From Tolypothrix carrinoi HA7290-LM1 (GTDB lineage: Bacteria > Cyanobacteriota > Cyanobacteriia > Cyanobacteriales > Nostocaceae), in the NCBI GenBank assembly GCA_019358935.1, contig JAHHIK010000017.1:31656-95655 (forward strand): DNA of 64,000 nt. Direction: 5' to 3'. The notes beneath the pieces are model-generated. The model made no database searches, was not told the DNA's origin, and was given only the letters and a program-made list of their open reading frames with translations. Shown here piece by piece: positions 26,239-49,800 of this stretch. Both the position numbers and the translations under genes were made by a program. Positions within the stretch are counted from its first letter, which is position 1. Each line of letters begins with the position of its first letter.

Positions 26239-26880
26239 TTAAAGCATAATCAAACCCAGTCGGACACCAACAGTTACTGCCTCAGTGCGAGACGAAACCC
26301 CTAGCTTCCCAAATATGGATGAGACATGAAACTTGACGGTGTGATCGGAGATATGCAAACGCTTGGCGATCGCTTTATTCCCTAACCCAGAACCAAGCAT
26401 TTCTAAAACCTCTATCTCTCTTGGTGTCAATGTTTGCATGGGTGTAAGCGTCACTTTTTCTCGCATCGACTCTTTGAGAGGAAGCAACTCAACCGCATCC
26501 GGGTGTAAGACAATTAGACCAAAAGCGATCGCCTCGACAGCGGCGATAATCTCTGACTCGGTGCTGGTATCTGGTAAAATGCCCCGTACACCAGAACGCA
26601 GCGCTACTTCTAAGTTGATGCTGTCAAGTTCGTCAGCAATAATCATAATTGGTGATGAGTATTGCTTTTCTTGCATCGAAAGCAATTTTTCCCATACTGA
26701 TTGTTGAAAATTGCCGCTCAAATCTAACAGCACCACCTGTGGTTGTAATTGCACTTCCCCCAAAAGTGCATCTAAGTCAGATACACTACCTACTACTGTC
26801 AGTTGAGGATTGCTTGTCAGCATAGCTGACAAACCTGCCCGCACCACGGGGGAAGCTGCAACTACCATCACCCGAATCAT
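26239..26880 (-). CDS. NarL/LuxR-family regulator with atypical receiver
   Basis: LTPREIEVL...NKAIAKRLHISDHTVKFHV HTH; the receiver's acidic pair is replaced (VVAASP). Confidence 0.88.
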   Translation of the reverse strand: MIRVMVVAASPVVRAGLSAMLTSNPQLTVVGSVSDLDALLGEVQLQPQVVLLDLSGNFQQSVWEKLLSMQEKQYSSPIMIIADELDSINLEVALRSGVRGILPDTSTESEIIAAVEAIAFGLIVLHPDAVELLPLKESMREKVTLTPMQTLTPREIEVLEMLGSGLGNKAIAKRLHISDHTVKFHVSSIFGKLGVSSRTEAVTVGVRLGLIML

Positions 26881-27701: not shown

Positions 27702-27735
27702 ATTGGGGAAATTGTGATTTTTGAAGTGGGAATTG

Positions 27736-28641
27736 TTACTGAATTGGTTTTTCGCCGATCGCGATCGCTTTGTCCAGCAAAACTCCACCGCGTACAATTT
27801 GCACAGAAACAGTTTTACCAACGCGATCGCTATTATTCAGCAACGCCAGCACATCACCGGTATCGCTGACAGAATTACCATCGAAGGCTACCAACACATC
27901 CCCAAGCAACACACCCGCTTTGTCAGCAGGTCCGTTTGTCTCAACATTGACGACAATCACCCCACCAGCAGAAGTTAAATTTAAGGCGCTTTTCAAGTTT
28001 GCAGGCAAACGTACAGGTTGCATTCCCAAACCCAAATAGCCCCGTGGAATGCGTCCTTTGGCAATTAATTGGTCAACCACGCGATTGACTGTAGAAGCGG
28101 GGATAGTCAAAGCAGTACCGCGCCGTCCGGAAGTATTCATTCCTACCACCAAACCAGCAGCATCTACGAGGGGTCCACCTGCAAAGCCAGGGTAAAAAGT
28201 GATGTCTGGACGGATGAACGAGTCAATATTACCACCGCTCATGCTTCGCCAAGCACCACTAACAACACTCACTGCACCCATAGCCGCTTTTAAGTCACCC
28301 TCGCTACTTCTTGCTAACCCAAGTACTAAATGACCAACTTTGAGCGTGGTAGCGTCGCCAATTTTCGCCACTGGGATTTCTTTGTTTTGTAGCTGCAAGA
28401 CAGCTACATCGGTGCTGGAGTCATGACCTAAGACTTTAGCTGCAACTGTACGATTATCTGTAGTCGTGACAGTAATTTCTTCATAGCGTTGCAGCGACTC
28501 GTCAGAGGTAACAATGATACCATCTCGCCAGTGAATACCGCTAGGAAAAATGCGTCCGCCAGCGTTCACAGCAACAACAGCACTCCCAACCTGCTCTACA
28601 ATATCGGCTAAATTGTTAGACAGAGCCAGTAATGAAGACAT
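27736..28641 (-). CDS. S1C-like protease with PDZ (predicted non-catalytic)
   Basis: Trypsin-like and PDZ domains present, but TSDES replaces TNAHV and PGFAGGPL replaces PGNSGGPL. Confidence 0.82.
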   Translation of the reverse strand: MSSLLALSNNLADIVEQVGSAVVAVNAGGRIFPSGIHWRDGIIVTSDESLQRYEEITVTTTDNRTVAAKVLGHDSSTDVAVLQLQNKEIPVAKIGDATTLKVGHLVLGLARSSEGDLKAAMGAVSVVSGAWRSMSGGNIDSFIRPDITFYPGFAGGPLVDAAGLVVGMNTSGRRGTALTIPASTVNRVVDQLIAKGRIPRGYLGLGMQPVRLPANLKSALNLTSAGGVIVVNVETNGPADKAGVLLGDVLVAFDGNSVSDTGDVLALLNNSDRVGKTVSVQIVRGGVLLDKAIAIGEKPIQ

Positions 28642-31659: not shown

Positions 31660-31803
31660 AGTAAAGGCTATAGCATTACTTTGTTGTTATTCTACAGTGA
31701 ATGATAAGTAGGTCGGCGGAAAAATTTACAAGTATGTAACGAAAATTTAACTACAATTAGAGTTAAATTGAAAACCTCGTATGATTTACTGAATTTACTT
31801 TTT

Positions 31804-31831
31804 GCAGCACGATCTCATCATTCTTCGTATA
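31804..31831 (+). promoter_or_regulatory. Putative ECF-like promoter GCAGCA-N16-CGTATA upstream of the sigma-like gene
   Basis: gcagca cgatctcatcattctt cgtata; the same boxes and spacing recur in the downstream repeats. Confidence 0.65.
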
Positions 31832-31889
31832 AATAGTAGTGGAGGTTATCGTATACTTAATGACATTGCTACAACTATGTCATTAGTTT

Positions 31890-32549
31890 ATGGACGAGCT
31901 AAACCTCCACCTGCAATCGTTCATTCAAGAGGCTTGCAGTCACATACCAGCCAGCCCACAGCGTCGTAAAGCCCTAAATTGTCTGCTCCGAGCCGTTCTG
32001 AAATCGGGGTGTCTTTGGACACCAGCAGCAGGGGATATTTATGAAGAGGCTCTATACAAAACCATGTTTAATTTAACCAAAACACTCTGCGATAAATACG
32101 ATCCAAGTCGAGGTTCATTCTTGACTTGGTTTAACATTTGCCTTCGCAGTCAGTACATGGATGAAATTCGCGCTGCCAAACGCGATCGCTCTCATAAACA
32201 GTCTGTATGGCAAAGTGATGAGGTCGAACTCGATCCCTTAGATCGAGTTGCTTCTGGTATAGATGCTACTTTGCTGCTTAACACTTGGGAATCATTTGTC
32301 CAATGGATTAAAGACGATCCTGATAATCTTCTTAAAGCTTGCCACATCGAAAATAATCCAAAAGCTAACTGTCAATTGCTTGCTTACTTGAGACTCGTCA
32401 TCGGCAAAGAATGGCAGGAAATTGCTCAAGAAGTTGGCTCATCACGCGGTGCAGTTACATCTCATTGGTCAAGAAAATGTCAACCTTTGCTCCGAGAATG
32501 GTTAGACAAAAATCAGAGGTTGTTTGGAGAAGATAACTATGAGCGATAA
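31890..32549 (+). CDS. Sigma-70 family/HetZ-like transcription factor
   Basis: Region-2-like YEEALYKT...YDPSRGSFLTWFN; C-terminal HTH EWQEIAQEVGSSRGAVTSHWSR. Confidence 0.75.
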   Translation: MDELNLHLQSFIQEACSHIPASPQRRKALNCLLRAVLKSGCLWTPAAGDIYEEALYKTMFNLTKTLCDKYDPSRGSFLTWFNICLRSQYMDEIRAAKRDRSHKQSVWQSDEVELDPLDRVASGIDATLLLNTWESFVQWIKDDPDNLLKACHIENNPKANCQLLAYLRLVIGKEWQEIAQEVGSSRGAVTSHWSRKCQPLLREWLDKNQRLFGEDNYER

Positions 32550-33417
32550 GCTAAATGTCTTACGGGAACTGGCAATTCCATTCCCAGTGACTGTATCGTT
32601 TAAAAGACAAGCCAGAGTCTACGCGTCGCAGTACTTCACTCAAGATGCCCAACAAAGAATTTATTTTAATACCCTAGCTGTACTCGTTGCTGATGCGTAT
32701 TTTCGTATGCTCGGTTTCGAGACTAATCTTGCCAAGCCAGAAAGATGGAATGCAGCTTATCGTCTGTGGAACGAAGCAAACGAGCTAGAACTGATTGGAT
32801 TGGGCAATTTGGAATGTCGCGCAATTGCTACAGGACAACAGTCTGTTATTTTACCACCGGAAAGTTTGAGCGATCGCATCGGCTATTTATTTGTAGAAAT
32901 CGCTAGTTCTGAAAAATCAGCGACACTGATTGGTTTTCTGCCTGCTTTTCATCCGGAAACTACAGATGCAGAAGTGGCGATCGCCACTTTACAGTCTATG
33001 GATGACCTCATTGATTACTTGACGCTCACGCAAGAATTTGCCGAAAAAAAACTTACTTACTTAAGAAACTGGTTAAATAACGTTTACGAGGCAGACTGGG
33101 AACCCTCAATGCGCGATCTCAGGAGTGCCACCTGTAAGAAAAAGCTCCAACTGGCAGGGCAAGTATTTGAAATGCAACTTTCTGTTTCTCAGAGCAACGA
33201 CGAATTGATTTTGGTTAGAGTTAATGTCAAAAGTGAAAGTGGTTCTCTACCTAGAGGAATGCAGGTCAGTGTACCAGACGAATCTGATATTTATACCGAA
33301 ACAGTGAATGAGGCTGCCGATCTTATTTCTATTCCTCTGGAATTATCTTCAGGTGAGGAGTTCTGGGTAGAGTTGCGGATAGGAGAAACCTTCATTAGAG
33401 AATACTTTATCGCCTGA
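32539..33417 (+). CDS. DUF1822 family protein
   Basis: QRIYFNTLAVLV..YF.MLG, LECR, DRIGYLFVEI...ATLIGF, LRNWL...W, F.VEL.....EYF; overlaps the sigma gene. Confidence 0.8.
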   Translation: MSDKLNVLRELAIPFPVTVSFKRQARVYASQYFTQDAQQRIYFNTLAVLVADAYFRMLGFETNLAKPERWNAAYRLWNEANELELIGLGNLECRAIATGQQSVILPPESLSDRIGYLFVEIASSEKSATLIGFLPAFHPETTDAEVAIATLQSMDDLIDYLTLTQEFAEKKLTYLRNWLNNVYEADWEPSMRDLRSATCKKKLQLAGQVFEMQLSVSQSNDELILVRVNVKSESGSLPRGMQVSVPDESDIYTETVNEAADLISIPLELSSGEEFWVELRIGETFIREYFIA

Positions 33418-33429
33418 AAAAAAGTTGCA

Positions 33430-35685
33430 ATGGCATTTAGAATCTCCTTTAAAATTGGCGGACGAGTACAACTTAACCATTCTGAAGTTCTGCCTGTCAC
33501 CCTTGCCATCTACGATCAACAAGGGCAAATAGAAGAACTCGTTTCGTTTCTTTCTCCTCTACCAAAACCTCTTGAAGATAAGTTTAAACAATGGCAGTAT
33601 TATATTGGTCTTCAAGGTAATCGTAAGGTTGCCAAAAATCAGAACAATCTAATTTCAGGTGTAGTCAATCTCACAGAACTCGCTAATTCCTTGAAAGCCG
33701 AATTAAACAAATGGTTAGGTAGCGATGGCTGGATTGATGAGAATGGACAATCCGATCCGCGTGTCAGTCAGGTTTTGGAAAGATTCAGGGAGAAAATTAC
33801 CCAAAAAGATGAAGTCCAGATTATTGTGCAGACAGAAGACCGACAACTGCGGGGACTTCCTTGGCAAGAGTGGGATACCTTGGCAGGCTATACTAGCAAA
33901 GGCGTAGAAGTTGCCATCAGTGCTACAAATTTCAAGCGACTGATTCAAAAGCAAACACCACAACTGAAAGCAACTGCACGCATACTTGTGGTGTTTGGTG
34001 ACGAAAAGCTTGGTTTTGCAGAAGAAGAAGATTTTATCAAAAGCCTGAGACAGCATGGCGGAGAACCCGATATCCTCAGACAACCTACACGTCAAGAATT
34101 AGAACAAAAGTTAAAAGACTCTCAAGGCTGGCACATTTTCTTTTTTGCAGGACATAGCCAAAGCGATCGCGACGGACGGATTGGACGCATTCAAATTAAC
34201 CCAGCCGATGGTGAACAAGGAATTATCGAAATCACGGAACTGAAAGATTTACTTGAAGGTGCAATCGAGAAAAAGTTGCAACTAGCAATCTTTAATTCTT
34301 GTGATGGTTTAGGACTGGCAAACCAGCTAACCGAGCTATCTCTACCCTACTGTATTGTCATGCGGGAAATGGTTGAGTCCTCTGTTGCTAGAGAATTATT
34401 GAAGCATTTTCTCGCAGCTTTTGTCAAAGATCGCTCTTTATTTGCATCGATGAATGCAGCCAGACAGCAGTTACAACAGAAATTTGAACCAGGTAAGAGT
34501 TGGCTTCCTGTAATTGTTGCCAATCCTCTGGCTAAAGAACTGACATGGAATCGTTTGTTTTCGGAGAGGAGGTTATCTTGGCAGTGGGAGATGCTATTGG
34601 GTATGGTTGCGATCGCTGTGCTGGTTTGCCTACCCATCGGCATATTTAGCGAGTTCCATTCTTTGGAAACCTTGACACTTTACGCGAAACTTTACCCTCA
34701 CCTTGTAGTGTATCCTTCTCTGTTTCTCTGGATGCCTTTGTTTGCGGCTTACAGAGCACATTGCATGATTCGCGTCAAGACACGTCCGTTTGTAATTATG
34801 ACACTCGTAACTGTGTTTTTCACATTGGGGGGGCTGTTGTTTGAGATCACTGGCGATCGCATAATGTTAATGGAGTTCAAATCCGATGCGACGACGACAA
34901 TTTACGCACAGCAACTCCCGGAACTTTACTTAAAGTGGAGAACTTCAAAGGCAGAAATCTCTAACATCCCCCAAGAAATTTTTAATCCTCGTCAGGTTTT
35001 CGACACTGAAGGAAATTTGACACTGAAAAAATCAGAGTTAGAGCCAGTCATAAAACGTCTTCACAGACTCAATAACATCAACATCGCGGGATTTCAAGGG
35101 CTTTTGCGGATTGCTACCGACTATGACGTTTGGCGACAAAATACTAAAGCTTTCTCGATAAGTCGATGGTTTTATGCTCTCAGCTTTGTTGCCATTATTA
35201 GTTGTGGTGTTCAGATTCTGGCACTTGTGGTGACAATTTGGCTTGAACCAGATTCTATATTTAACAAGAATAAATACTTGACATATGTCATCATATGTGA
35301 ATTGGGTATCCTGTTATGGCTGCCCTTTCAAAGCTACAGCATAGAGCATACCAAAAGCCTGTTATTTTCACCTGAGTTTAAAGGTACTCTAGCCGGACTT
35401 AATGTTCTTCTTTACGCAATTATTTCCATCATATTTTCGCCAACTATTATCTGCATATACAGAAGTGCAACTAAAAAATATCAGCCTATTTTATTGTCAT
35501 TCTTGTTAGGTAGTTTTAGTTTGACGCTTCTAGGTAGCTGGTTTGGTGTTTCTCTGATCGATCGCGTATTTGGGATGAGTAGTACCAATCCCCTGACTCC
35601 TTGGTTTGCAAGTAGCATTTTCTTTGCTGCTTTATTTTTCTTTTTGTTCGTGCGGTTGATTGATCGTGGCGTTGGAGACCAGTGA
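33430..35685 (+). CDS. CHAT-domain (caspase/HetF-like) protease fused to a multi-TM sensor region
   Basis: LPWQEW, FFFAGHS (His), IFNSCDG (Cys), VMRE, ARQQL, WLPVI; then about 8 hydrophobic helices with an extracytoplasmic loop. Confidence 0.85.
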   Translation: MAFRISFKIGGRVQLNHSEVLPVTLAIYDQQGQIEELVSFLSPLPKPLEDKFKQWQYYIGLQGNRKVAKNQNNLISGVVNLTELANSLKAELNKWLGSDGWIDENGQSDPRVSQVLERFREKITQKDEVQIIVQTEDRQLRGLPWQEWDTLAGYTSKGVEVAISATNFKRLIQKQTPQLKATARILVVFGDEKLGFAEEEDFIKSLRQHGGEPDILRQPTRQELEQKLKDSQGWHIFFFAGHSQSDRDGRIGRIQINPADGEQGIIEITELKDLLEGAIEKKLQLAIFNSCDGLGLANQLTELSLPYCIVMREMVESSVARELLKHFLAAFVKDRSLFASMNAARQQLQQKFEPGKSWLPVIVANPLAKELTWNRLFSERRLSWQWEMLLGMVAIAVLVCLPIGIFSEFHSLETLTLYAKLYPHLVVYPSLFLWMPLFAAYRAHCMIRVKTRPFVIMTLVTVFFTLGGLLFEITGDRIMLMEFKSDATTTIYAQQLPELYLKWRTSKAEISNIPQEIFNPRQVFDTEGNLTLKKSELEPVIKRLHRLNNINIAGFQGLLRIATDYDVWRQNTKAFSISRWFYALSFVAIISCGVQILALVVTIWLEPDSIFNKNKYLTYVIICELGILLWLPFQSYSIEHTKSLLFSPEFKGTLAGLNVLLYAIISIIFSPTIICIYRSATKKYQPILLSFLLGSFSLTLLGSWFGVSLIDRVFGMSSTNPLTPWFASSIFFAALFFFLFVRLIDRGVGDQ

Positions 35686-36299
35686 ATATGGAAGGTAAAT
35701 TAGTCAGCAAAGAACAGCAGAAAGTAATGCTGATTGTAAGCTTGGCATACATTTTGCCTGTTCTACTGATTTATTTGGGATTAGTTCCTTTTCGGGCGCG
35801 GTTTTATATCCTGATCTTGGCTGCTATTGCTATTTTAGCGATCGCTCGACTCTACCGATTTTCTCTTGTAGAACTGGGATTTACTAAACAACACCTGGGA
35901 ACTTCTCTCAAAGCGATCGCTCTACCAACCTTAGCTTCTGCTTTGCTCATGTTCATTTACTATATGATGCGAGGGATACGTATTGATAACTCTGCATACA
36001 AATGGACTTTCTACCTTTTCTTTGTTCTAGTGTCTTCTCCTCTACAAGAGTTTTTGTATCGCGGCTTTTTATTTGGTATTTTTTCGAGAGCAAAGTTGGC
36101 GATTTGGTTACATATTTTACTCTCAACGTTACTCTACAGTTTCGTTCATCTCATTTATCAAGATGTACCTACGCTGCTATCCACATTTATCCTTGGTATG
36201 TTCTGGGGCTATCACTACGCAAAGTATCGGAATTTATATAGTATCATTATCAGTCACTCACTACTTGGTGCGATCGCTATTCTAGTTGGTCTGGTATAA
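35682..36299 (+). CDS. CPBP (Abi/CAAX type II) intramembrane protease
   Basis: QEFLYRG, YSFVH, IISHS motifs; GTGA overlap with the CHAT gene. Confidence 0.85.
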   Translation: MNMEGKLVSKEQQKVMLIVSLAYILPVLLIYLGLVPFRARFYILILAAIAILAIARLYRFSLVELGFTKQHLGTSLKAIALPTLASALLMFIYYMMRGIRIDNSAYKWTFYLFFVLVSSPLQEFLYRGFLFGIFSRAKLAIWLHILLSTLLYSFVHLIYQDVPTLLSTFILGMFWGYHYAKYRNLYSIIISHSLLGAIAILVGLV

Positions 36300-36770
36300 T
36301 AAAGCTCAAGCAAAATTTTTTGAGTGTTGTGCAGCACAGGGTGACTCTCGTAGGTATATAAACTGAGCCTGTAGTGCGATCGCTATAAGAGTGATGGTAT
36401 CAGGCTCAAGCAAAGTTTTTTGAGTGTTATGCAGCACGGGGTGACTCTCCTACGTATATAGATTGAGCAGGAGTGCGTTCGCCCTTGGCGTTGGCGTTCG
36501 CGGAGCGTCTCGAAGAGAAGCCATCGCTATTTTAGTTGTTCTGGTATAAATCAAGCAAAATTTTTTAAATGTTGTGCAGCACGGGGTGACTCTAGTACGT
36601 ATCTAGATTGAGCAGGAGTGCGTTCGCCCTTGGCGTTGGCGTTCGCGGAGCGTCTCGAAGAGAAGCCATCGCTATTTTAGTGGGTCTGGTATCAGACTCA
36701 GGCAAAGTTTTTTGAGTGTTGTGCAGCACAGGGTGACTCTAGCACGTATATGTATTGTGAAGGATAGGAA
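36270..36770 (+). repeat. Four tandem ~100-bp promoter-bearing units (HIP1-bounded; two with an identical 45-nt insert in HIP1)
   Basis: TCAAGCAAAATTTTTTGAGTGTTGTGCAGCACGGGGTGACTCTAGTACGTATATAGATTG consensus, with GCAGCA at 36331, 36431, 36576 and 36723. Confidence 0.92.
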
Positions 36771-36918
36771 ACTAACCAGATGAGGAAGGAATGAGTAAGT
36801 ATGTTGCAAAAAGTATTTGTAAATCTTGTAATAGCTGTCAAAATTACTTTTGATCATCTTAAGCCATGTTAGCTAATAGTTGTACAAGTTTACCTAAATT
36901 TATGACCCACGATATAGT

Positions 36919-37995
36919 ATGTTTGACTTAAATGCAAAACGTCGAAAAACAATAGCCTCATTTTTTAGCTTATCTCTTGCCTTTGTTTTAATGGTAAGTT
37001 GTGTTGCTGCTCCTCCGATAACTTTGGCAACTATATTTAGTGCGGCTAATACACTCGTCAGCTTAATTGATATTACTGAGAAAGCATTTTACATAACTTC
37101 TAAATTAGTAAATACTTCTTATGGAGAATTAAAAGTAAATTTAGATAGTGAAAGATTCGTAGTTAATCCAAATTTCTCTAATGCAACCATCGAAAATATG
37201 GAAGCTCGACATTTAGATTTATCAACACAACATAAAGAATTGGATAATTCAATTTATAAAACTAATGTAGCTGCAAACAAATTCTTTTCAATGCTTGAAA
37301 CAAGAGCTAACCAAAATTCTAGACCTGAATTTAAAGAAAAGTTATTGCGTGATATTCGTGTCAGTAAAAAAGCTTTTGGAGAGAAAATAGAAGTAGCTGA
37401 AAATGTTTCATCAAAACTTAAATTTTCAATCAAAGAATATGACAATATTCTCAGTTTTTTACAGGTAACTACAGTGCTTAAGGAAGCACAGAAATACATT
37501 ACAACGGTTGATTCGGTGATATCACAGTATGAAACCTTGAATCAAGAGGTTCAGGTAGCCCTGAATGAAGGACGGCAAATAATTGCAAATGTTGCGGATG
37601 TTCCTTCTAAAAAGCCTGAAGGGGCAGTTTCCATACCAACACCTAACGAAAATACAACCCAACAGCAAGTAGATCATCCCGTCTTAGGAATAAAGGGTAT
37701 AGGTCTGACACAAGAAGCGCGTCAGCAGATCAAGCAAGACAAAAATCTCGAACACCTCTTACTAAATCTAGATAATGTAGATAAGGGTGTCCTGGTAGTT
37801 GAAGTATTTCAAAATTCCTCTGCTGCTGAGGCTGGTATCAAAGCGGGTGATGTTATTTTGACAATCAATGGCAAAGCTGTAACTGATGTCAGTGAAATTA
37901 CAGCCGAACTCAAAAAATCTCAAGTAGGTGCACAATTACCCTTGGTAGTGCATCGCAATCAACAAAACTGGGAATTTTTGGTGCGTCTCATTTAG
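36919..37995 (+). CDS. Lipoprotein with coiled-coil region and HtrA-type PDZ domain
   Basis: Lipobox MVSC; helical middle; VDHPVLGI...GVLVVEV...AAEAGIKAGDVILTING PDZ. Confidence 0.78.
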   Translation: MFDLNAKRRKTIASFFSLSLAFVLMVSCVAAPPITLATIFSAANTLVSLIDITEKAFYITSKLVNTSYGELKVNLDSERFVVNPNFSNATIENMEARHLDLSTQHKELDNSIYKTNVAANKFFSMLETRANQNSRPEFKEKLLRDIRVSKKAFGEKIEVAENVSSKLKFSIKEYDNILSFLQVTTVLKEAQKYITTVDSVISQYETLNQEVQVALNEGRQIIANVADVPSKKPEGAVSIPTPNENTTQQQVDHPVLGIKGIGLTQEARQQIKQDKNLEHLLLNLDNVDKGVLVVEVFQNSSAAEAGIKAGDVILTINGKAVTDVSEITAELKKSQVGAQLPLVVHRNQQNWEFLVRLI

Positions 37996-38089
37996 CTGAA
38001 CTTCATCTTCTATCTACGGATATTGCCCTTGACTTATCAAAACTTGCCATTGAAGCACACGATTAAGACTATTAAACTGAAGCAACCTT

Positions 38090-38362
38090 GCATTGCTATT
38101 TTAGTAAGTCTGGTATCAGGCTCAAGCAAAATTTTTTGAGTGTTGTGCAGCACGGGGTGAGTCTAATACGTATCTAGATTGAGCAGGAGTGCGATCGCCG
38201 TTCGCGCAGCGTCTCGTTCGCGATCTTCGTCTTTGTTCGCGTAGCGTCCCGAAGGGAAGGAGAAGAGAAGCCATCGGTACTACAGTATCAAACTAAAAAA
38301 AAATTAAGTCTTTTGCAGCAAGGGGTGAGTCTAGTCCGTATATAGATTGTGAGGGATACGAG
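38090..38362 (+). repeat. Two further promoter-repeat units separated by nested small dispersed repeats
   Basis: GCAGCA at 38147 and 38315, each followed by CGTAT after 16 nt; HIP1 at 38191. Confidence 0.88.
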
Positions 38363-38425
38363 ACTGCTGCTCATTTGACCCCGTAATTAGATGGACGAAA
38401 ACACACACCGAGGTGAATTACGAAA

Positions 38426-38677
38426 ATGAAAAATCAACTATCGAACAGTCCTATGAAATTTATGATTCGGTTATCAACTCTTGCTTTAGTTGCAATCGCG
38501 ATGGTCGGTTGCGATGAAGAAACTCAACAACAACCTGACCTGAGCCAACAAATGCCGGATCAGCAAATAACCCAGCCCAACCGTCAGCCCGAACCTGAGT
38601 CCTCTTCTGCACCAAGCAATCCACCGATCGATCCTTTCTATGGTTCGGGTCCAGGCGGCTCGTTCTACGGAAATTAA
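38426..38677 (+). CDS. Small lipoprotein ending PIDPFYGSGPGGSFYGN
   Basis: RBS GAGGTG; lipobox MVGC; Q/P-rich linker. Confidence 0.75.
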   Translation: MKNQLSNSPMKFMIRLSTLALVAIAMVGCDEETQQQPDLSQQMPDQQITQPNRQPEPESSSAPSNPPIDPFYGSGPGGSFYGN

Positions 38678-38683
38678 TCTGTA

Positions 38684-38760
38684 GCCTCAAGCAAAATTTT
38701 TTAAGTGTTATGCAGCACGGGGTGACTCTAGTACGTATATAGATTGTGAGGGATACGAAA
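38684..38760 (+). repeat. Promoter-repeat unit
   Basis: GCAGCA at 38712, CGTATA at 38734. Confidence 0.9.
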
Positions 38761-38872
38761 CCGCAAAGGTAAGTCAGAATGTCTGCTGCTGTAAGCTTCC
38801 ATTCTGCAATTCTATCTACAACCATCGATTACCTCAGTTACCAAAACCTATCACCATAAGGAATACAGTCTT

Positions 38873-39388
38873 ATGAAATTTATTGTTGGGTTATCAAGTC
38901 TTGCCTTATTTTCACTCTCTAGCGTTTCTCCATGTTTAGCTGTCAACCAGTTGGTCAGTCCCTCGGTAGATAAAACTTTACGCAGTACAACAACAACAAT
39001 CCAGGTGGCTAACACCTTCGGCTCTGTCATCCAAATAATCAATACAGTAGACCACGAGATACGCAACAGAGAAAGAGCCAGGCAAAGACAAGAAAGTTTA
39101 GATATCTATAGACAACGAAATGAGGAACGACAAAGAAAGCTAGAAGCCACTAGACAAGCAGCTAGACAACGGCGAGAAGCATACCTGCAAAGCCTCACAC
39201 CCCAGCAGCGAGCAAAGTTTCTGGCAGCAGAGCGGGAACGAAACACCCTGATGTGGCGCACCCTTATTGATGCCGCAACCATCACGGCACCCACGACGAG
39301 CAATGATGGTTCCAGCACAGGAACAGGGTATCGTAGTCAGGTTGAAAATTGCCACTACGACAATCAAGGTCAAACGATATGTTGGTGA
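38873..39388 (+). CDS. Secreted hypothetical protein (LTxxQ helix, C-terminal C-x9-C)
   Basis: Signal MKFIVGLSSLALFSLSSVSPCLA; YLQSLTPQQR; ends NCHYDNQGQTICW. Confidence 0.75.
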   Translation: MKFIVGLSSLALFSLSSVSPCLAVNQLVSPSVDKTLRSTTTTIQVANTFGSVIQIINTVDHEIRNRERARQRQESLDIYRQRNEERQRKLEATRQAARQRREAYLQSLTPQQRAKFLAAERERNTLMWRTLIDAATITAPTTSNDGSSTGTGYRSQVENCHYDNQGQTICW

Positions 39389-39485
39389 GAATGCTCCTAC
39401 TCCTACGGTTTAAGTAAGTCGGCACAAATGTTTGTAGTTCGATTATCCCAGTCACAAAAAGCTACCACTAACAGGATATATTCTT

Positions 39486-39989
39486 ATGAAATTCATTGTT
39501 GGGTTATCAAGTCTGGCTTTATTTTCACTTTCTAGCATTTCTCCATGTTTAGCTGCCAATCAGTTGGTCAATTCTTCAGAGCAATCTTTACCAAGTACAA
39601 CAAAAACAATCCAGATTGCTCAAACACGGCGACGTGTCAATATGTATCAAAGAAGAAAACAACAAAGTGCCGCCGCCGCCGCCGCTAGACGTGAAGCAGA
39701 AAGAAGATACTTTCAAAGTCTGACTCCAGAACAAAAACGAGCATATATTGCTCAGAGACGGGCTAGACAGGAACAACAAGCGAGACAGATGTTACTAATG
39801 CTTGGAATACTGGGGGCAGCAATGGGGGGGAACTCAGGCGCGTCACCAAGCTCAAATGCTAATCAAGACAGATGGATTGTAGAAGATAGCTATAACAGAC
39901 AACCAGCATATCAATCTGCTCCTACACCTGTTGCACCAATTAGTCCCTTCTACGGAACGGGTCCTGGAGGATCATTCTATGGCAATTAG
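39486..39989 (+). CDS. Secreted hypothetical paralog ending PISPFYGTGPGGSFYGN
   Basis: Near-identical signal peptide; YFQSLTPEQK; hydrophobic helix; conserved tail. Confidence 0.78.
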   Translation: MKFIVGLSSLALFSLSSISPCLAANQLVNSSEQSLPSTTKTIQIAQTRRRVNMYQRRKQQSAAAAAARREAERRYFQSLTPEQKRAYIAQRRARQEQQARQMLLMLGILGAAMGGNSGASPSSNANQDRWIVEDSYNRQPAYQSAPTPVAPISPFYGTGPGGSFYGN

Positions 39990-40082
39990 ACCAGGAAAAT
40001 AACTAAAACGAGCGGTAAGGAGTGAGATTAATAACTTTTCCATCTCACCCCTTTCCCATAACTGATATTTCTTTATCGCAAC

Positions 40083-40934
40083 ATGAGTATCTTTAAACAA
40101 CAAAGGATTATGAATTTAAGTAGAATCGGTTTGATTTTAGCTCCGATTTTAGTGACCTCTGCCACTTTTTTTCCTTCTCAGGTAAGAGCAAAATCGCGAA
40201 TTACCTCAATAGGTGATGCTGCTCTTAATGCGGCTGATCATTGTCGCAAGAATGCTCCAGCATTTTTACGTGAAAATCCCACAAATATGAAGGTTATGGC
40301 TAGTCACTGTGCACAAATTGTTCACAGAGTTGTTGCGGCTCTGAGGGCAGCTAAATATCGTCCGACAGGTTTAAATTTACAATCAGATAGAGATTTGACG
40401 GTTTTCATCAACAGAACTTCTCCTATCCTTGCCAAAGATGCTTCTGTTACTCAAAGTATTAGAAGTGCGCGAGATGTATTTAGCGATGATGTGATAGAGA
40501 CAATTCTCTTGGGATCAATTGGTGTGTATGCGTATCTGGATTTTGGCATTGACATTACTCACAATTCGCGTAATCGAACACTTGGAGGATGGGAGGCAGC
40601 AATTGGGGGTAACTCAAGAGCTTCATCAAGATCCAACTCCTCACCAGTGGCTTTACCTTCTCCTAATTCGCCTCCTCCTTATTTACCTTCTCCTAATTCT
40701 CCTCCTGTGAATGCACAAAAAAAGATTTCGGATCAGCGAGTTTTAGCCCGAATTTCTAATAATGTTTGCCAAAAATACGTTACTATTCAACAAAAACATC
40801 AAGCTTGTAATCGATTAACAGTTAGCGGAATATCGGCTTTAAATAGCTCCAGGCTTAATCCCATTGGGGTGAATTTAAGAAATGACTCACAGTTTCAAGC
40901 TTATCTAAAAAAAGCGGGAGATGTCTTGACTTAG
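40083..40934 (+). CDS. Secreted hypothetical protein with Pro-rich linker
   Basis: Signal peptide ending VRA; LPSPNSPP x2; paired Cys in two domains. Confidence 0.7.
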   Translation: MSIFKQQRIMNLSRIGLILAPILVTSATFFPSQVRAKSRITSIGDAALNAADHCRKNAPAFLRENPTNMKVMASHCAQIVHRVVAALRAAKYRPTGLNLQSDRDLTVFINRTSPILAKDASVTQSIRSARDVFSDDVIETILLGSIGVYAYLDFGIDITHNSRNRTLGGWEAAIGGNSRASSRSNSSPVALPSPNSPPPYLPSPNSPPVNAQKKISDQRVLARISNNVCQKYVTIQQKHQACNRLTVSGISALNSSRLNPIGVNLRNDSQFQAYLKKAGDVLT

Positions 40935-41256
40935 GACAATTCCTTTATATCCTCTTTCACATTTGCTTCGAGTCATTTAACTAAACAAGAAACTTCAGAT
41001 ATTTACTTGTCTATCATTATTGCTTATAGTGCGTTTAAGAATCAAGGATACTAGAATTCTCGTAATATAGTTCATAGTGAGGAATTTATTTCTGCTTTTA
41101 GGACTAAATTTCTTAATACTAACCTGTAATTATTGACGCTGAGGATAATCTTTTCTATAGCTTTTCTAATTTTCCATACTCGTCAATTAAGTTAGATGTA
41201 GATTGGGTTGAGGCTTTGTGAAACTCGACATTATCAACATTTGTAATTAATAATTT

Positions 41257-41814
41257 ATGTCTAAGCTCAGAAAAAGGCTAATAAATCTTTCCTTCATGGG
41301 TGGTGCGATCGCACTGTTACTTATTCCAACCACCTCTTCCTATGCTTCAAGCCTTAATAGTATTTTCTTCATTACCAAGAGTGACAACGGTAATCAGGTG
41401 CATTATGGTGTGCAGACTAATGCAGACTGCTCTCTAAAAGCTCCTAAACCTGTGTACCCCTATTGGAAGCTCGAAAGTGGTCGGTTAGAGCGTTTGCTTT
41501 CCATTGAGGTTCCAGCTTTTGGTATTGCCAGCCAATCAGTTTCAGGCAATGAAGTAGTCATGGAAGTGAACGGCTTCAAAGCACGAGGAATTTCAAAACC
41601 CATTACGATTCGATCTACCCAATTAAAAAGTCAAGAGTGTCAAATATTGGCTTTTACAAAAATCAATGGTGAAGCCACTCGGCTGCTTCAAGTTCATATT
41701 GACTTGACTAGACAGGGTTTATTTGGGCTTGGTGGTACCGTTCACAGCATCACATTTTACGGTGCTGATCAAAAGCAGGAAAAGATTGTTTGTAAATCTA
41801 ATTGTAGTTTCTAA
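41257..41814 (+). CDS. DUF4833-like secreted protein
   Basis: Signal peptide; IFFITKSDNGNQVHY...PVYPYW...E..AFGI. Confidence 0.7.
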   Translation: MSKLRKRLINLSFMGGAIALLLIPTTSSYASSLNSIFFITKSDNGNQVHYGVQTNADCSLKAPKPVYPYWKLESGRLERLLSIEVPAFGIASQSVSGNEVVMEVNGFKARGISKPITIRSTQLKSQECQILAFTKINGEATRLLQVHIDLTRQGLFGLGGTVHSITFYGADQKQEKIVCKSNCSF

Positions 41815-42025
41815 GAGGTCTTTGCCTCTAATTGTCTCATCCCTTCTCTATGAAAGTTTAATTCTTCGCCCAGTAATTGTCATAGAAGTATGGGCGATCG
41901 CTATTCTATTCAGAAGCCAATTAATTAGCGATCGCAAACGTTGAGAGGTTTGTAGTTTCATTAAACAATAAAAGATTATGAACTTAAGCAGAAGTGGTTT
42001 AGTTTTAGCAACGAGGTAACTGAAT

Positions 42026-42958
42026 TTGAAGCAAGCTCATCGAGCAATTCTATCCATAATCGCGGGCGTGGTTCTATCCACGTTCCCTAACATGGCTCTG
42101 GCTCAATCTGAAATACAGCCAAGTCAACGAGTTAGATATACCGGACTATTTACTAATACAACTTATAACTTGAGTGGTAACGTAGTTATAGAAGTTGTGC
42201 TTGAACGTCAAAATAGAATATCTGGCTACATCAATTTTACAAACTATCCAAGTGTACGGACTATCTGCGGAGCAGGGAAATTTGCAGGAATACGAGGAGG
42301 GCGTAATTTGCTATTTGATTTTGTTTCTAGTGACCCTGACCCTGGCTGCGGATTTGATCGTGGATTGAAGTTTACAGTTAGCGCAACTCTTTCAGAGGAC
42401 AACCGTACGTTAGAAAATGGAAGTTACCAAATTAATAACTCGCAGGCAGGTGTCTTTACAGCTAGTTCTTCTACTGCACTTGTACATCCCTGCAATGATG
42501 ACAGAATAAACGATAATTACAATAAAAATGATTCAAATTATCATTATTATAGTCTGACAAATGGAATTTGTTCTAAAACTTTGAAAGGCTGTACTAGGGA
42601 AAAAGTTTTCCAAACTATGATTTCACAAGAGCAGTTCATTGTGCCTTCTCCTCTTGATGATAAACCAGTAGTCCATTGTCGAGAAAAAACTTTAACTCTT
42701 GGAAATCCAATTAGAACTACTATCAATTCAAGTGACTACTCAATAACAAATTACACACTTCCAGGACATATGTTTCATCCAGGCAAGATTACTCGGAGAG
42801 TTATTGAAACAAATGATGCGATCAAAGTAACAACAATTGGAGAAGGGGTAGGCGACTACAAAAAATTCAACATATGGGTGGCTCCAGATATATGGAGTCG
42901 TGCTGATATCCTTTTAAGTGTGAGAGTAAGGTTGATTTTGTCAAACAAAAATAATTAG
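42026..42958 (+). CDS. Secreted two-domain hypothetical protein
   Basis: Signal peptide ending ALA-Q; beta-rich N-domain; C-domain NYTLPGHMFHPGKITRRV...TIGEG. Confidence 0.72.
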   Translation: MKQAHRAILSIIAGVVLSTFPNMALAQSEIQPSQRVRYTGLFTNTTYNLSGNVVIEVVLERQNRISGYINFTNYPSVRTICGAGKFAGIRGGRNLLFDFVSSDPDPGCGFDRGLKFTVSATLSEDNRTLENGSYQINNSQAGVFTASSSTALVHPCNDDRINDNYNKNDSNYHYYSLTNGICSKTLKGCTREKVFQTMISQEQFIVPSPLDDKPVVHCREKTLTLGNPIRTTINSSDYSITNYTLPGHMFHPGKITRRVIETNDAIKVTTIGEGVGDYKKFNIWVAPDIWSRADILLSVRVRLILSNKNN

Positions 42959-42988
42959 TGTAGAGGCTCCAAGCATAGCAAAGCACAG

Positions 42989-43309
42989 CTGCTTGCTATT
43001 GAGGTTCCAGTTTTTGGTATTGCTAGCCAATCAGTTTCAGGCAACGAAGTAGTCATGGAAGTGAACGGCTTCAAAGGACGAGGAATTTCAAAACCCATTA
43101 TGATTCGGTCTACCCGATTAAAAAGTCAAGGGTGTCAAATATCGGCTTTTACCAAAATCAACAAAGAAGCTACTCGGCTGCTTCAAGTCCATATTGACTT
43201 GACTAGACAGGGTTTATTTGGGCTTGGTGGTACCGTTCACAGCATCACATTTTACGGTGCTGGTCAAAAGCAGGAAAAGATTGTCTGTAGTTCTAATTGT
43301 AGTTTCTAA
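42989..43309 (+). pseudogene. 5'-truncated duplicate of the DUF4833-like gene
   Basis: About 320-bp direct repeat of 41494-41814 lacking the signal peptide and N-terminal half. Confidence 0.88.
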
Positions 43310-43456
43310 GAAGTTTGTGCCCCTGGCTGAAAAAAATTTTGGTAAGAATTTACACCCCATTCAATTTTTATTTAAATATTGAATGTTTGACTGTTGACTG
43401 TTGAAAATTCAAGTTTTATTTAGCTTTATAAATAATAAGATAACTGTATTTACATT

Positions 43457-43927
43457 ATGGCAAGAATATCATTTCCAGATAACCTTTTCTTAAAATGTTG
43501 GATATTTTGGATTATAGTCGAATGTACATTTAAAATTTCTTACGAGATGAAATCACCCACTACATTTAAGGAGTTGGAATTTTTTCATGGATTAATATTA
43601 CCTTGGTTTTGTGGGGCGATATAATCTGATTTTAAGTTTTTGTCATATGGAGTAATTGCAGTACATATATATATTGTCTTAGTTATACTCTTTCAAAACT
43701 ATGGTCTTATAAAAAATGTTAAGACATGGGTTCGTATACTATGTGTGCCGGCAATTTTCACAATATGGATTGAGCCTTGGATTACTTTTGTCACTCATAA
43801 ATCACCAGAGATTTTATTGTCTTTTTCCTTTTTACATCCGATATTATTTGTTGTTGACATAACTTTTTCTTTATTATGGCTTGTGTTAACTTACATTATT
43901 TGTAAATTCCTTGACGAGGAATTTTAG
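43457..43927 (+). pseudogene. AT-rich membrane-protein ORF interrupted by one in-frame TAA (43622-43624)
   Basis: ATG at 43457 is open for 55 codons, then TAA, then the same frame continues into the 43640-43927 hydrophobic ORF. Confidence 0.5.
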
Positions 43928-43948
43928 ATTTACTTGGTTTAATGTAAA

Positions 43949-44010
43949 CCTCAAGAAAAATTTCTTCACTGTTTGCAGCACGGAATAATTCAAAAGACGT
44001 ATATAATTTG
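43949..44010 (+). promoter_or_regulatory. Divergent promoter-repeat copy GCAGCA-N17-CGTATA
   Basis: CCTCAAGAAAAATTTCTTCACTGTTTGCAGCACGG...CGTATATA. Confidence 0.65.
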
Positions 44011-44234
44011 TGATGAAATCTTTGGTGTTTAACCCTACGAATGTCACTCTCGCAGGAGTATAATTAAGGGCGAGTGCCTCCGGCACGCTACGCGAACGTG
44101 AAAACCGAAGCAGAGAGTATGGTTGAACCTCGCCTTTCTGAGGCAATGGGCAGATGATGAACGCCGCACCTTGAACAATTTAATAACGATACTTCTAGAG
44201 AAGCGGTAACAGAGAAAAAGGAGAATAAAAACGA

Positions 44235-44600
44235 ATGACCAACGCAGGACAACCACCAACCATTGAGGAACGCTTAAGCCGCCTAGAAAATATCTTTGCC
44301 AACATTGGTGAAACGGTAGTTGCACAAAGCGACACTATTGATGTTGTCGTTAAGAACATCACGCAATTGAGCGAGAACGTCAACAGGTTGAATAATGTTG
44401 TTGACAATCTAGCTATCAGTGTCAATCAGTTGAGTACAGAAGTATCAACAACAACTAGGAATATTGCAGCTTTAACAACCCAAGCCGCAGAAGACAGACA
44501 ACAAGCCGCTATTGACCGCCAAGAGTTCCGAACAGAGATTCGGCGTATTTGGGAATATCTACGCGATCGCAACGGTGGCAGCAGCACACCTAGTAGTTAA
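44235..44600 (+). CDS. Coiled-coil hypothetical protein (cyanobacterial IRRIWEYL type)
   Basis: RBS AGGAG; heptad pattern. Confidence 0.75.
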   Translation: MTNAGQPPTIEERLSRLENIFANIGETVVAQSDTIDVVVKNITQLSENVNRLNNVVDNLAISVNQLSTEVSTTTRNIAALTTQAAEDRQQAAIDRQEFRTEIRRIWEYLRDRNGGSSTPSS

Positions 44601-44653: not shown

Positions 44654-45024
44654 ACTTACGCATTGACAGAAAATTGATACTATGCAGTCAAGCCAAACTT
44701 CTGTGTTAGGTGTTTCAAAATAAAGTCACGAGCCACTTGAAGAGATAAATTTCTTTGGATTTCATACCAATTTTCAATTAACTCTTCGACACGCATTAAT
44801 TCTAATTGTGTAAAAGCTCGAATTGCACTAAAAAAATGAGTTTTAATTGCCTCAGTTGTTCTCACCATGAAGTTACCGATACCACATACTTGTTTAATGG
44901 CTCTGTGCGAAGATTCAATTCCCCAATGTATTGAATGTAATTCCTTAAATTCGGTTCTAGAGATTGAATTTAGTACATCTTTATCAGGATTGTACATAAT
45001 GTAATATCTGTAAGTTTCGTTTTT
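44654..45024 (-). mobile_element. IS701-family transposase 3' fragment with terminal repeat
   Basis: HWGIESSHRAIKQVCGIGNFMVR...H signature; end sequence TGTCAATGCGTAAG; 5' part missing. Confidence 0.75.
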
Positions 45025-46894: not shown

Positions 46895-49800
46895 TTACTC
46901 TTGACTTTCTTGGAAAAACTTCTTGTGAATGATTCTAGTCTGTTGTCCGTCAGTAGTAACTGCGGTCATGAGATAATCAATCAAGCTGTCTGTAAAGGGG
47001 ACACGTAAGTGGAAAGTTCCATCGGGTTTGAGTTTGATGGAATGACCACCGATTGTCACGGTTGCACCTGGTTCTGTTGCTCCGTGGATAATTAACTCAG
47101 CATCCGCTTGAAACCAGAAATCAGGCTGGGGACGGGTATAGACGCGAACCGTGGCTGAACGAGCTAGTAAAAACCAGCGATCGCTATTAATTAAATAGCC
47201 AATTTCTGCCATATAATCGCGATCGCTTGCCGGAATCGCTACATAGCGATCGTGTGTTACCTCCTCACATTCATACTGCTGCACCAGTGTGGGAGTCTGA
47301 TAACTGAAGTCAATATCAGTCACATCATACAACCGCAACGCTAATTGGCAAACTCCTTCTTGCTGCACTGCTTTTTTCTGGCTGTCGTCAACGTTCCAAG
47401 ATACATAAGCCCATTTTGCCGTGCGGGGTGCGATCGCAATGCTGCTTTCTACATCCTTTTCTTCGCTAATTGTATCTTCACTTACCGTTGTATCAGTGTT
47501 TTCCGTATTGTTATATATCATAGACCAAGCTCCAGCACCCGCACCCGCACCGACAAAAGGCACACCACCCGCTAAGTCTACCGGGCTGGATTCAGTAACA
47601 TTTTGTTCAGGTTCGGGGACGTTAGATACAGCCTCGTTTATGTCTTCATCGATGGGTACGTTGGCTGGTAGTTCTAAGTTTGCATCTGTAACTTCTGCGG
47701 GTGTTTCGCTTGATTCTGGTGAGTTTAAAGAAGTTGTCTCGCCCATATCAAACAAATCTGATGATACATCATCTTCTAAAGTTGCATCATCCGCAGAGGT
47801 AATATTTTCTAGCCAGTTTGATTCAGCAGATAAATCTTCCTCAGCTGCGTCTGCAACCACATCCAAAGCAGCTTCCGGAACATCTGGTAATTCCGGCATT
47901 GCAGGTATAACTTCCACTGTTGGCAATTGTGCATCTAAAACAGCTTCTCCAACGTCTGGCTGTTTTGCGGGTGTAACTTGCACTGTTGGCAATTGTGCAT
48001 TTAAAACAGCTTCTTTTACATCTGGCTGTTTTACAGGTGTAATTTCCACTGTTGGCAATTGTGCATTCAAAACAGCTTCTTTTACATCTGGCTGTTTTAC
48101 AGGTGTTTCGATATCCCAAAAATCTTCGTCAATATTGCTGACTTCTGTGGTATAATCACTACTTTCGGGTTGCGCTTTACCAGACAGTCGCGACCAAAGT
48201 ACTGCCCCACCTTCTGCTACTGCATTACCCGCAGAGGTGATATTCTCTAGCCAGTTAGATTGAGCTGGTTGTTCTGTCTCGTCTTGTGCGAATTCCATGT
48301 CCCAATCGTCTTCGTCAGCTGCAAGTTCGGGGACATTTGGCAATTCGGGTAGAGAATCGGTAATTTGCGTTGTCAATGTTTCTACTTGATTAGATGCAAC
48401 TTCTGGGACATCTGGCGATTTGGTGGGGGGTGCTTCTACATTAGATGTAAGTTCGGTGACTTCTGGTGATTCAATTGCGGGTGTTTCGATATCCCAGAAA
48501 TCTTCGTCAGCATCGTTGGTTTGTGTGGTTTGGTTAGTAGCTTCGGGTTGTGAATCTCTATTTTGCGATCGCGACCAAAGTACTGCCCCACTTCCTGCTG
48601 CTACTGTACCACCAAGAGAGGTGATATTCTGTAACCAGTTAAATTGTTGTGCTGGTGGTTGTACTTCTGTCTCGTCTTGTGCAAATTCCATATCCCAGTC
48701 ATCTTCATCAGATGCAAGTTCGGGGAATGAATCTGTAATTTCTCTTGTCGATTTTTCTACATCTTCATCATATACAAGTTCAGAGACATCTGGCTGTTCG
48801 GGGAATGAAGCTGTAATTTCCGTGGGGGGTGTTTCTACATCTGTAGGAATTTGCGCTTCTTTTGGTGTAATTTCAATTATCGATGCTTCTGGATTCGATG
48901 CAAGGGAAAGAGAATTTCTAACTTCAGTTGTCGGTGCTTCAGTATTTACTTCAGATTCTACATTCGATGGAAGCGGGAGAGAATTTCTAACTTCAGTTGT
49001 CGGTGTTTCTACTGCTGTAATTTCCGTTGTTGGTGCTTCGATATTTACATCCGATGCTACGTGTTGAGAATCTCTAACTTCAGTTGCCGATGCATCTACT
49101 GTGGTGGAATATTGCAGTTTGGGGGTTGTGACTTCGGCTGGTGGAGTTTCAATATCCCAGACATCTTCTTCAAGGTCGTTGCTTTCTGGAGTTTGGGCGT
49201 TAGCGAAGCTCGCCGTTGGCGAAGCCTCTCGAAGAGAAGGCATCGCTTCTCTTTGTGTGCCAGTTAATGGCGACCAAAGTATTGACCCGCCTGCTGCTAC
49301 TGTACCACCAAGAGAGGTGTTTAATCGTGCTGGTGGTAGTGCTTCAGCCGTGGGTATTGGTGCATCTGGCGGTTGGACGGTTGTTTCGGTTACAGGTGCT
49401 TCGGCATTCGATACGACTTGGGGAACATTTGATGATAATGTTTCAGTATTATTCCTGATTTCTGTAGGCTCATCTGCTGCTGTCTCAGATGTTGGCGACC
49501 AAGTGCTTGTCCCTATCCCTACTGGTGCAACGCCTGCTAAAGCTGCGCTACCACCGGAGGTAATGTTAGAAACTGGTAATGTTGTGTCTTCAGGCACATT
49601 AGCTGCGGTGTTAGTTACCCCGATGTCGGAAACAGGGGTAGTATTTTCTACCGCGCCGGATTGTGTTTGCGCGTAAGCGCGAAGCAACTGGTTATCAGAC
49701 AAAGCCTCGCTAACAGGAGGGGCAACACTTGCGTTTAGGGCTGTTGTTGGTATAGTCTCTTCTAAGGGCTGATTGGATGATTCTATTACGTTGTCTGTTG

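Follow-up and report, generated by a model that had tools for sequence, protein, structure and literature searches.

Can a membrane-bound, caspase-like protease gate a sigma factor and, through it, a set of envelope genes encoded next door? This question is raised by a locus of the cyanobacterium Tolypothrix carrinoi HA7290-LM1 (assembly GCA_019358935.1, contig JAHHIK010000017.1) that occupies positions 31804..44600 of the window, i.e. of the whole 64,000-nt stretch analysed here (contig positions 31,656-95,655, forward strand); all coordinates below are those of the window. Four genes open the locus and encode a sigma-like protein, a DUF1822 protein, a CHAT protease fused to a membrane domain and a CPBP/Abi membrane protein. 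The model we propose, to which we give a rough probability of 0.55 as a whole chain, is that of a self-contained sigma/anti-sigma/protease signalling module: the sigma factor would be held by DUF1822, freed by the protease and directed to a promoter-like motif that precedes its own gene and neighbouring genes for exported proteins.

The tight coupling of the four genes, noticed in the initial annotation, is confirmed by their coordinates. On the + strand, the sigma-like gene (31890-32549) and the DUF1822 gene (32539-33417) overlap by 11 bp, a 12-bp gap precedes the CHAT-membrane gene (33430-35685), and the CPBP gene (35682-36299) is joined to the latter through a GTGA overlap. The sigma, DUF1822 and caspase-like CHAT genes are adjacent and in the same order across the orthologous loci, which were gathered from genomes, metagenomes and plasmids (seven duplicates were dropped by script and L061 by hand). 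Scans for sigma-70 promoters and terminators remained at chance level and do not delimit the operon; the Rfam search gave no match. It is from the comparison of these sequences that the operon, the motif, its linkage to the locus and the covariation described below emerge.

The sigma factor and its promoter-like motif

The first gene (31890..32549, +) codes for a protein of 219 residues whose model (predicted local distance difference test score, pLDDT, of 82) consists of sigma2 (about 1-106) and sigma4 (about 124-212) joined by a short linker, with no sigma3. In the fold search, whose top ranks are nearly all sigma factors, it matches SigW (Z 9.5, root mean square deviation 3.1, 89 residues aligned), region 2 of SigC (Z 8.9), region 2 of sigmaE (Z 8.7) and region 4 of a SigH (Z 8.3). 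By its predicted fold, the protein is an extracytoplasmic function (ECF, group 4) sigma factor with a putative promoter-directing activity.

The element that it would read is a bipartite motif, TGCAGCA-N16-[C/G]GTA, which had been reported to recur eight times downstream of the sigma gene. Nine copies were indeed located, one at 31803 before this gene and eight downstream, at 36330, 36430, 36575, 36722, 38146, 38314, 38711 and 43974. The first copy (31803..31831, +) is a candidate autoregulatory site, 87 nt upstream of the sigma start, in which a -35-like TGCAGCA is followed by a 16-nt spacer and a -10-like CGTA. The strict pattern TGCAGCA-N17-GTATA has six exact matches in the 7.96-Mb genome, all within this locus, and the repeat was not found in viral contigs.

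The motif accompanies the operon in other genomes. Of 35 close loci, 33 have it within 600 nt upstream of the sigma gene; the two misses are L050, where the sigma gene is truncated, and L055, where a one-base variant is seen by eye; in an unselected alignment of 20 sigma leaders, TGCA..A and TCGTA are invariant. Within 8 kb after the CPBP gene it occurs in 31 of 37 close loci, against three matches on the opposite strand, and the six misses include two loci with almost no sequence there. It is absent from the nine testable downstream regions of distant subfamilies (9/9). Strict matches occur in 52 of the 389 family genomes, with two or more copies in 16 of them; all 16 fall among the 37 genomes that encode the membrane domain, and none of the other 352 has two or more. 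A single strict match is present in 27 of these 352 genomes, in some cases as the remnant of a decayed locus. The sigma identity, the cognate promoter, the autoregulation and the nearby exported-protein regulon put forward in the initial annotation are thus well supported by comparative evidence (33/35, 31/37, 16/16), and the motif probably marks the exported-protein genes that the sigma factor switches on.

Several variations of the site were observed. In nine loci the sigma gene is preceded by TGCAGAA, the downstream sites remaining TGCAGCA, which is perhaps a weakened feedback promoter. Orphan copies and decayed loci, five cases together, were also met, in which internal deletions join the operon ends and the promoter survives, sometimes together with a tail-protein gene of the kind described below. 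In the sigma leader, just 5' of the ATG, a conserved inverted repeat (31858..31885, +) preceded by a conserved TATACT-like hexamer is possibly an RNA hairpin, an operator or a second, housekeeping promoter; across the orthologues 85% of its cells are paired, the one-sided changes are all G-U, and the alignment contains no two-sided (compensatory) change. RNA-seq contigs (four runs, two studies) cover the whole stretch of the orthologous locus L071, where the first regulon gene has its own contig, ending at 9143-9150 in the four runs and starting at 8183 or 8200 in two, with the motif at 8193; such contigs cannot rank genes, give strand or exclude DNA, and they are not used as evidence here.

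The sigma factor and the motif furthermore vary together. Seven loci carry TGCAACA before the sigma gene and, where sites are present, downstream too, and residue 186 of the sigma factor is Arg in 26 of 26 TGCAG loci and Ser or Gln in the seven TGCAA loci (7/7). This residue sits in the first turn of the sigma4 recognition helix and, from an alignment by eye, we take it to be the counterpart of Arg584 of sigma70, the reader of the fifth base pair of the -35 box. A search for the TGCAACA pattern in five Ser/Gln genomes, run as a forward test after the variant had been recognised, returned 21 matches and none for the reversed control; all 21 lie on the contig and strand of the sigma gene, within about 16 kb, and the strict TGCAGCA pattern has no match in these five genomes. 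Twelve of the 21 are upstream copies, distinct from the sigma gene's own site and from the downstream ones, and they head arrays encoding exported proteins, LemA, DUF3137 and M48 peptidase. LemA, DUF3137, M48 peptidase and exported Cys proteins are found behind TGCAGCA in L046 and L047 and behind TGCAACA in L147-L149. L046, which has Arg186, shows a single TGCAACA among its three sites. The covariation of Arg186 with the -35 element would represent a natural one-residue/one-base specificity switch.

DUF1822, the membrane protease and the proposed mechanism

What would hold such a sigma factor in check? The candidate anti-sigma is the DUF1822 protein (32539..33417, +; 292 residues; PF08852, E 5e-56), whose model (pLDDT 81) comprises a nuclease-like N-domain, a low-confidence linker and a C-terminal beta-sandwich; the reading of DUF1822 as a TPR protein is rejected on the basis of this model. 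The fold of the N-domain matches those of I-Ssp6803I (Z 8.8, root mean square deviation 3.5, 115 residues aligned) and Hjc (Z 8.6), with a further match at Z 8.1.

The modelling of the sigma-DUF1822 pair, a check recommended at the outset, supports binding, with a complex score of 0.82 against 0.00 for the best of three controls. The runs share at least 63% of their contacts and the pLDDT of the partners is at least 81; the mark set for the score is reached by 116 of 157 solved pairs and by 2 of 215 mismatched pairs, a calibration that applies here roughly, given the alignments used. The modelled contacts link residues 20-63 of the sigma factor, together with parts of sigma4, to the N-domain of DUF1822 only. 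The sigma helix 49-69 aligns with the region 2.2 helix of SigK, and as this helix is the core-polymerase binding surface, its modelled cover fits an anti-sigma role. We judge it very likely, from the model, that DUF1822 binds the sigma factor, and likely, from the interface and by analogy, that it inhibits it. To our knowledge, no comparable complex has been described.

The third gene (33430..35685, +) encodes the caspase-like CHAT protease (PF12770, E 1e-10; 41.5 bits for a cut-off of 24) fused to a membrane domain of about eight helices with a 111-residue loop. The His/Cys dyad of the initial annotation has been retained throughout, His242 (FAGH) and Cys291 (NSC) being invariant in 32 of 32 aligned homologues, and the N-terminal part, at the position of EACC2, aligns from residue 2-21 with the CHAT paralogues of the same genome. 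The multi-helix region and its loop were also recovered: hydropathy gives six strong helices, to which two weaker ones are added by eye, and with about eight helices the positive-inside rule would place the loop (472-582) outside. The membrane domain has no solved relative and no family in the ESM Atlas (best 0.86, with recognition under the bar), and its 19 remote hits contain no Pfam family besides CHAT and one TIR. In the class, the C-terminal region of the CHAT protein is a variable sensor or effector, a place taken here by the membrane domain. The membrane domain also occurs as a stand-alone protein, common among the remote hits, and once with TIR (P0204); in two loci (L034 and L035, genomes G160 and G043) a stand-alone copy follows the CHAT fusion.

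The fourth gene (35682..36299, +; PF02517, E 1e-13) encodes the CPBP protein, with the motifs QExxxR, YxxxH and HxxxG; a sequence search gave no solved relative for it. Gln takes the place of the first motif-1 Glu in 39 of 42 orthologues (three not parsed), YxxxH is kept, and in motif 3 Gly replaces Asn/Asp, so that the protein departs from the catalytic set EExxxR, FxxxH, HxxxN/D. The first motif-1 Glu is catalytic in Rce1 and needed in MroQ (PMC13692083; 10.1101/516906), and the second is usually essential in other Abi proteins according to one paper. The CPBP protein is probably a non-catalytic accessory subunit or scaffold, and the suggestion that it processes the secreted products is weakened by these replacements (QExxxR in 39/42, HxxxG).

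In the mechanism we propose, the N-domain of DUF1822 would cover the region 2.1/2.2 helices and part of sigma4, thereby keeping the sigma factor off RNA polymerase. An envelope signal, sensed by the eight-helix domain and tuned by the non-catalytic CPBP protein, would activate the cytoplasmic CHAT domain, which would cut DUF1822 after the linker Arg, ahead of the C-terminal beta-sandwich, and free the sigma factor. The freed sigma factor would fire its own promoter, in a positive feedback, and the regulon, resulting most likely in an envelope-remodelling or surface-protection response. For the steps that run from signal sensing and CPBP tuning to CHAT activation and the liberating cut, the balance of the arguments leans in favour; the cleavage of DUF1822 by CHAT and the extracytoplasmic trigger would follow the precedent of HetF-PatU3-HetZ. 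The linker indeed carries a conserved motif, W.P.MR, whose Arg is nearly invariant in the subfamily, and an Arg-Ser/Gly linker motif is present in 90 of 120 DUF1822 relatives of a paralogue. A sister subfamily of eight loci has the same membrane protease, mostly with CPBP, but its DUF1822 is short and bears another N-domain, the upstream regulator differs, and no motif was found there. The N-domain and the upstream regulator are thus both replaced in it, the linker and sandwich staying beside the same protease, as one would expect of a C-terminal part that serves this protease.

It is possible, with a smaller share of our confidence, that the sigma factor reads the motif and binds DUF1822 without any cleavage of the latter; the CHAT domain would then process itself or another target, and release would occur by partner switching, or DUF1822 would be a chaperone or a co-activator. 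Activation as an autopeptidase has been proposed for the class (Kaur 2021, PMC8195603), as has self-cleavage for the CHAT domain of DdvA (PMC11506125). In the linker of the window, moreover, the Arg directly before Ser is unconserved, and near-invariance is confined to the Arg three residues before it. On the other hand, an activator would be expected to leave the region 2.2 helix accessible, and in the complex model this helix is buried; linker and beta-sandwich also stay with the protease where the N-domain has been exchanged, which is again at odds with an uncut DUF1822.

A role of the locus in defence or cell death, in which cleavage would unmask the nuclease-like N-domain as an effector and the sigma factor would only prime accessory genes, appears improbable. 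The resemblance to I-Ssp6803I and Hjc invites it, two acidic residues being kept at the expected strands, and the patchy distribution (37/389 genomes), the plasmid copies and the broken loci are typical of conflict systems. The catalytic motif of PD-(D/E)XK nucleases is D..E-x-K, however, and its Lys is replaced here by Arg or Cys; the N-domain is occupied by the sigma factor in the model and is exchanged for an unrelated domain in the sister subfamily; PADLOC has no match for the four core proteins, and the regulon consists of exported and membrane proteins.

The gated-sigma model we prefer has to be weighed against several observations. The sigma protein is a divergent member that scores below the TIGR02937 cut-off (32.4 versus 42.9 bits), and Foldseek gave no match at E<=0.001. 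The transcription start, the binding and the cleavage rest on prediction and comparison; the search pattern was widened after the upstream sequences had been inspected, and the loci and genomes counted are kin, not independent, so that p-values drawn from them are overstated. L070 is intact and has no downstream copy, and L049 has copies upstream. Seven other sigma columns also separate the TGCAG and TGCAA groups, and the trees need one or two changes, a single origin not being rejected (p-AU 0.275, 23 of the loci). PatU and DUF1822 give an hhalign probability of 3.7-5% (E about 0.01 over the C-terminal sandwich, with 1 of 25 block shuffles as high), by which homology is not shown and the HetF precedent is an analogy. 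Finally, most regulon genes have no known function.

The putative regulon

What would the sigma factor switch on? The notion of one promoter per cassette does not hold, as the eight downstream copies serve four genes (36919, 38426, 38873 and 44235). Four stacked copies (36330, 36430, 36575 and 36722; 36330..36750, +), in which the 3' end of the CPBP gene is duplicated along with the promoter-like site, precede a predicted lipoprotein of 358 residues with a C-terminal PDZ domain (36919..37995, +), the N-terminal part of which was not found in the other loci compared. Copies 5 and 6 (38146 and 38314; 38146..38342, +) precede a predicted lipoprotein of 83 residues (38426..38677, +), and copy 7 (38711..38739, +) heads a run of co-oriented genes, the next copy lying only at 43974. 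This last one, copy 8 (43974..44003, +), has a spacer one base longer and stands 261 nt before an open reading frame (ORF) for a coiled-coil protein of 121 residues (44235..44600, +). Most of these targets are exported, as had been stated (signal peptides were judged by eye), the exception being the coiled-coil protein, in which no signal peptide is seen and whose membership of the regulon is doubtful.

The run behind copy 7 begins with two paralogous exported proteins of 171 and 167 residues with variable short C-terminal tails (38873..39989, +); the aromatic/Gly-rich tail of the 83-residue lipoprotein is the same as that of the 39486 protein. There follow an exported protein of 283 residues (40083..40934, +), an exported DUF4833 protein (41257..41814, +), an exported protein of 310 residues without family match (42026..42958, +), a truncated second DUF4833 copy due to partial duplication (43055..43309, +) and a hydrophobic ORF of 95 codons without family match (43640..43927, +). 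The ORFs at 39486, 40083, 41257, 42026, 43055, 43457 and 43640 have no motif copy of their own, and these seven, between 39486 and 43927, can only be read through from 38711.

Across 34 regions behind the motif, 128 ORFs were grouped into recurring families. The tail-bearing exported protein is the commonest (15 regions), followed by DUF4833 (12), the 40083 family (7) and RTX-repeat proteins (5); a two-helix protein of 95 residues, absent from the window, occurs in 12 regions, and lipoproteins also recur. In L096, a block of the window's regulon families stands behind the same motif about 95 kb from the sigma locus. As judged from these sequences, the regulon is a conserved, shuffled set of envelope proteins, mostly local, and its gene content suggests a task in envelope remodelling or surface protection. 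An integron-like cassette array was considered and rejected, the gene families recurring across genera in varying order and the locus having no recombinase.

Could the exported proteins themselves be the signal? In a closed peptide-signalling loop, which we regard as a long shot, the sigma factor would drive the synthesis of exported precursors, and their short variable C-terminal tails, aromatic/Gly-rich or Cys-looped, would be the ligands of the eight-helix sensor. The tail family is the commonest of the regulon (15/34 regions), occurs two or three times in the window and varies in its tails; on the other side, neither the four TGCAA regulons examined nor the RTX-only loci showed it, and the CPBP protein that might release the peptide looks inactive. 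Matches of the tail protein in the Atlas were all under 0.8 and gave no lead. If the loop existed, it would be a caspase-gated sigma factor in quorum or kin sensing of filamentous cyanobacteria, the promoter/sigma variants insulating strains from one another.

Rather than being a promoter, the repeat might also have come about as a side effect of tandem duplication, or be a site of recombination at which cassettes are captured. What is left of the last nine CPBP codons can be recognised clearly in copies 2-5 and weakly in copy 6, so these copies are local duplications of the surroundings of copy 1 and not independent evidence; the CPBP tail or a remnant of it is common to six of the eight downstream copies, which also share 65-90% identity, and between the copies there are HIP1 sites and dispersed repeats. 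Most copies having arisen in this way, their number by itself proves nothing. Across genera, however, both boxes and their spacing are kept while the spacer diverges, the copies always stand co-oriented before genes, the sigma gene's own site has an unrelated spacer, both sites change with sigma residue 186, and the window locus has no recombinase, all of which makes a non-promoter reading very improbable. That another cellular sigma factor reads the motif, a thought prompted by the other DUF1822 loci of the genome (at least eight, several with sigma-like neighbours), is every bit as improbable, since no genome lacking this system has multiple copies and the two closest paralogues (31% identity) differ in the upstream box, GCATAA..C[AG]CGAG, and in the recognition helix.

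With the present locus, the genome has nine DUF1822 loci; two paralogous sigma-DUF1822-CHAT loci (G000:C62:16356 and G000:C106:11520) share the upstream box GCATAA-N15/17-C[AG]CGAG. For one DUF1822 paralogue 3,432 relatives were found, and DUF1822-caspase-sigma modules are abundant in filamentous cyanobacteria. As to the surroundings, a 300-nt direct repeat (41495-41794 and 42990-43289, 93% identity) flanks the 42026 gene, the upstream region of which resembles that of the 40083 gene, suggesting a recent local rearrangement. Between the end of the regulon and an Omp85 gene there is a DDE transposase remnant (44680-44997, -), and in L078, from the same genus, a broken operon stands shortly before the same Omp85 gene. 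Further away, two adjacent genes for trypsin-like proteases are followed by one for a LuxR-type response regulator (26239-28641, -; from translation only), and a protein of 1351 residues (46895-50950) begins with a substrate-binding-like part and contains a single membrane helix as well as long acidic repeats.

Comparison with known systems

The locus belongs to the caspase/ECF sigma/DUF1822 class catalogued in silico by Kaur 2021 (PMC8195603), where caspases whose C-termini vary are described as encoded next to an ECF sigma factor and DUF1822, and where a single operon combining caspase+TM with Abi is listed; the arrangement of the genes is therefore not new. That operon has the HTH/TRADD-N form, unlike the sigma form described here. 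In the parts of that paper considered, DUF1822 is called a TPR protein, autoproteolysis is proposed and multi-TM domains are suggested as pores, and no promoter, regulon or anti-sigma role is mentioned; another paper only lists DUF1822 genes (PMC9679502). No experimental study of these triads or of this promoter was found in the literature search, outside of which most subscription journals fell. What is new, all of it proposed from comparison and modelling, is a cognate promoter that switches together with one residue of the sigma factor, a modelled interface for an anti-sigma and a CPBP protein that is probably inactive. The subfamily makes this signalling class directly testable, as it offers a defined promoter, a one-residue/one-base switch, a surface predicted to bind the sigma factor, a linker that is a candidate for cleavage and a small number of targets. 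If the model is true, DUF1822 would represent a new class of anti-sigma factors with a nuclease-like fold, and cyanobacterial engineering could draw on the orthogonal sigma-promoter pairs as tools.

In the Csx29-Csx30-CASP-sigma system of type III-E CRISPR, a CHAT protease reportedly cuts a soluble sigma-binding protein, with target RNA on Cas7-11 as the trigger. Unlike that system, the locus has no CRISPR genes, TPRs or Csx30; Cas7-11, a TPR-CHAT of the Csx29 type, Csx30 and a CRISPR array were sought among its ORFs and repeats, and none was found. The CPBP protein recalls CflP and Abx1 of CovS, which likewise lack the first motif-1 Glu and stand beside a membrane sensor (PMC13692083); their partner is a histidine kinase, in a streptococcus, whereas the physical pairing of the CPBP protein with the sensor is a putative one here. 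DdvA-DdvS of Myxococcus xanthus (PMC11506125) also links a CHAT domain to the release of an ECF sigma factor with an adjacent regulon. Its CHAT domain, unlike ours, is periplasmic and lies inside a single-pass zinc anti-sigma; the system needs RseP and controls CBASS/CRISPR genes.

The closest likeness is to HetF-PatU3-HetZ. In Anabaena PCC 7120, HetZ belongs to the ECF sigma factors and is inhibited by PatU3 (PMC13342950), and the CHAT protease HetF cuts PatU3 after Arg117 (PMC9457339); the genome studied here has its own hetZ-patU elsewhere. Both systems combine a membrane-anchored CHAT protease, a soluble inhibitor (a candidate one here) encoded behind an atypical ECF sigma factor and a bipartite promoter with a spacing of 16-17 nt. 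They differ in that HetF is unlinked and has periplasmic TPRs, and in that HetZ, of about 400 residues with insertions, reads TCCGGA at hundreds of sites. By analogy, the locus probably works like HetF-PatU3-HetZ. Could the logic of that system then be a general signalling scheme of cyanobacteria? If our model is true, it would be.

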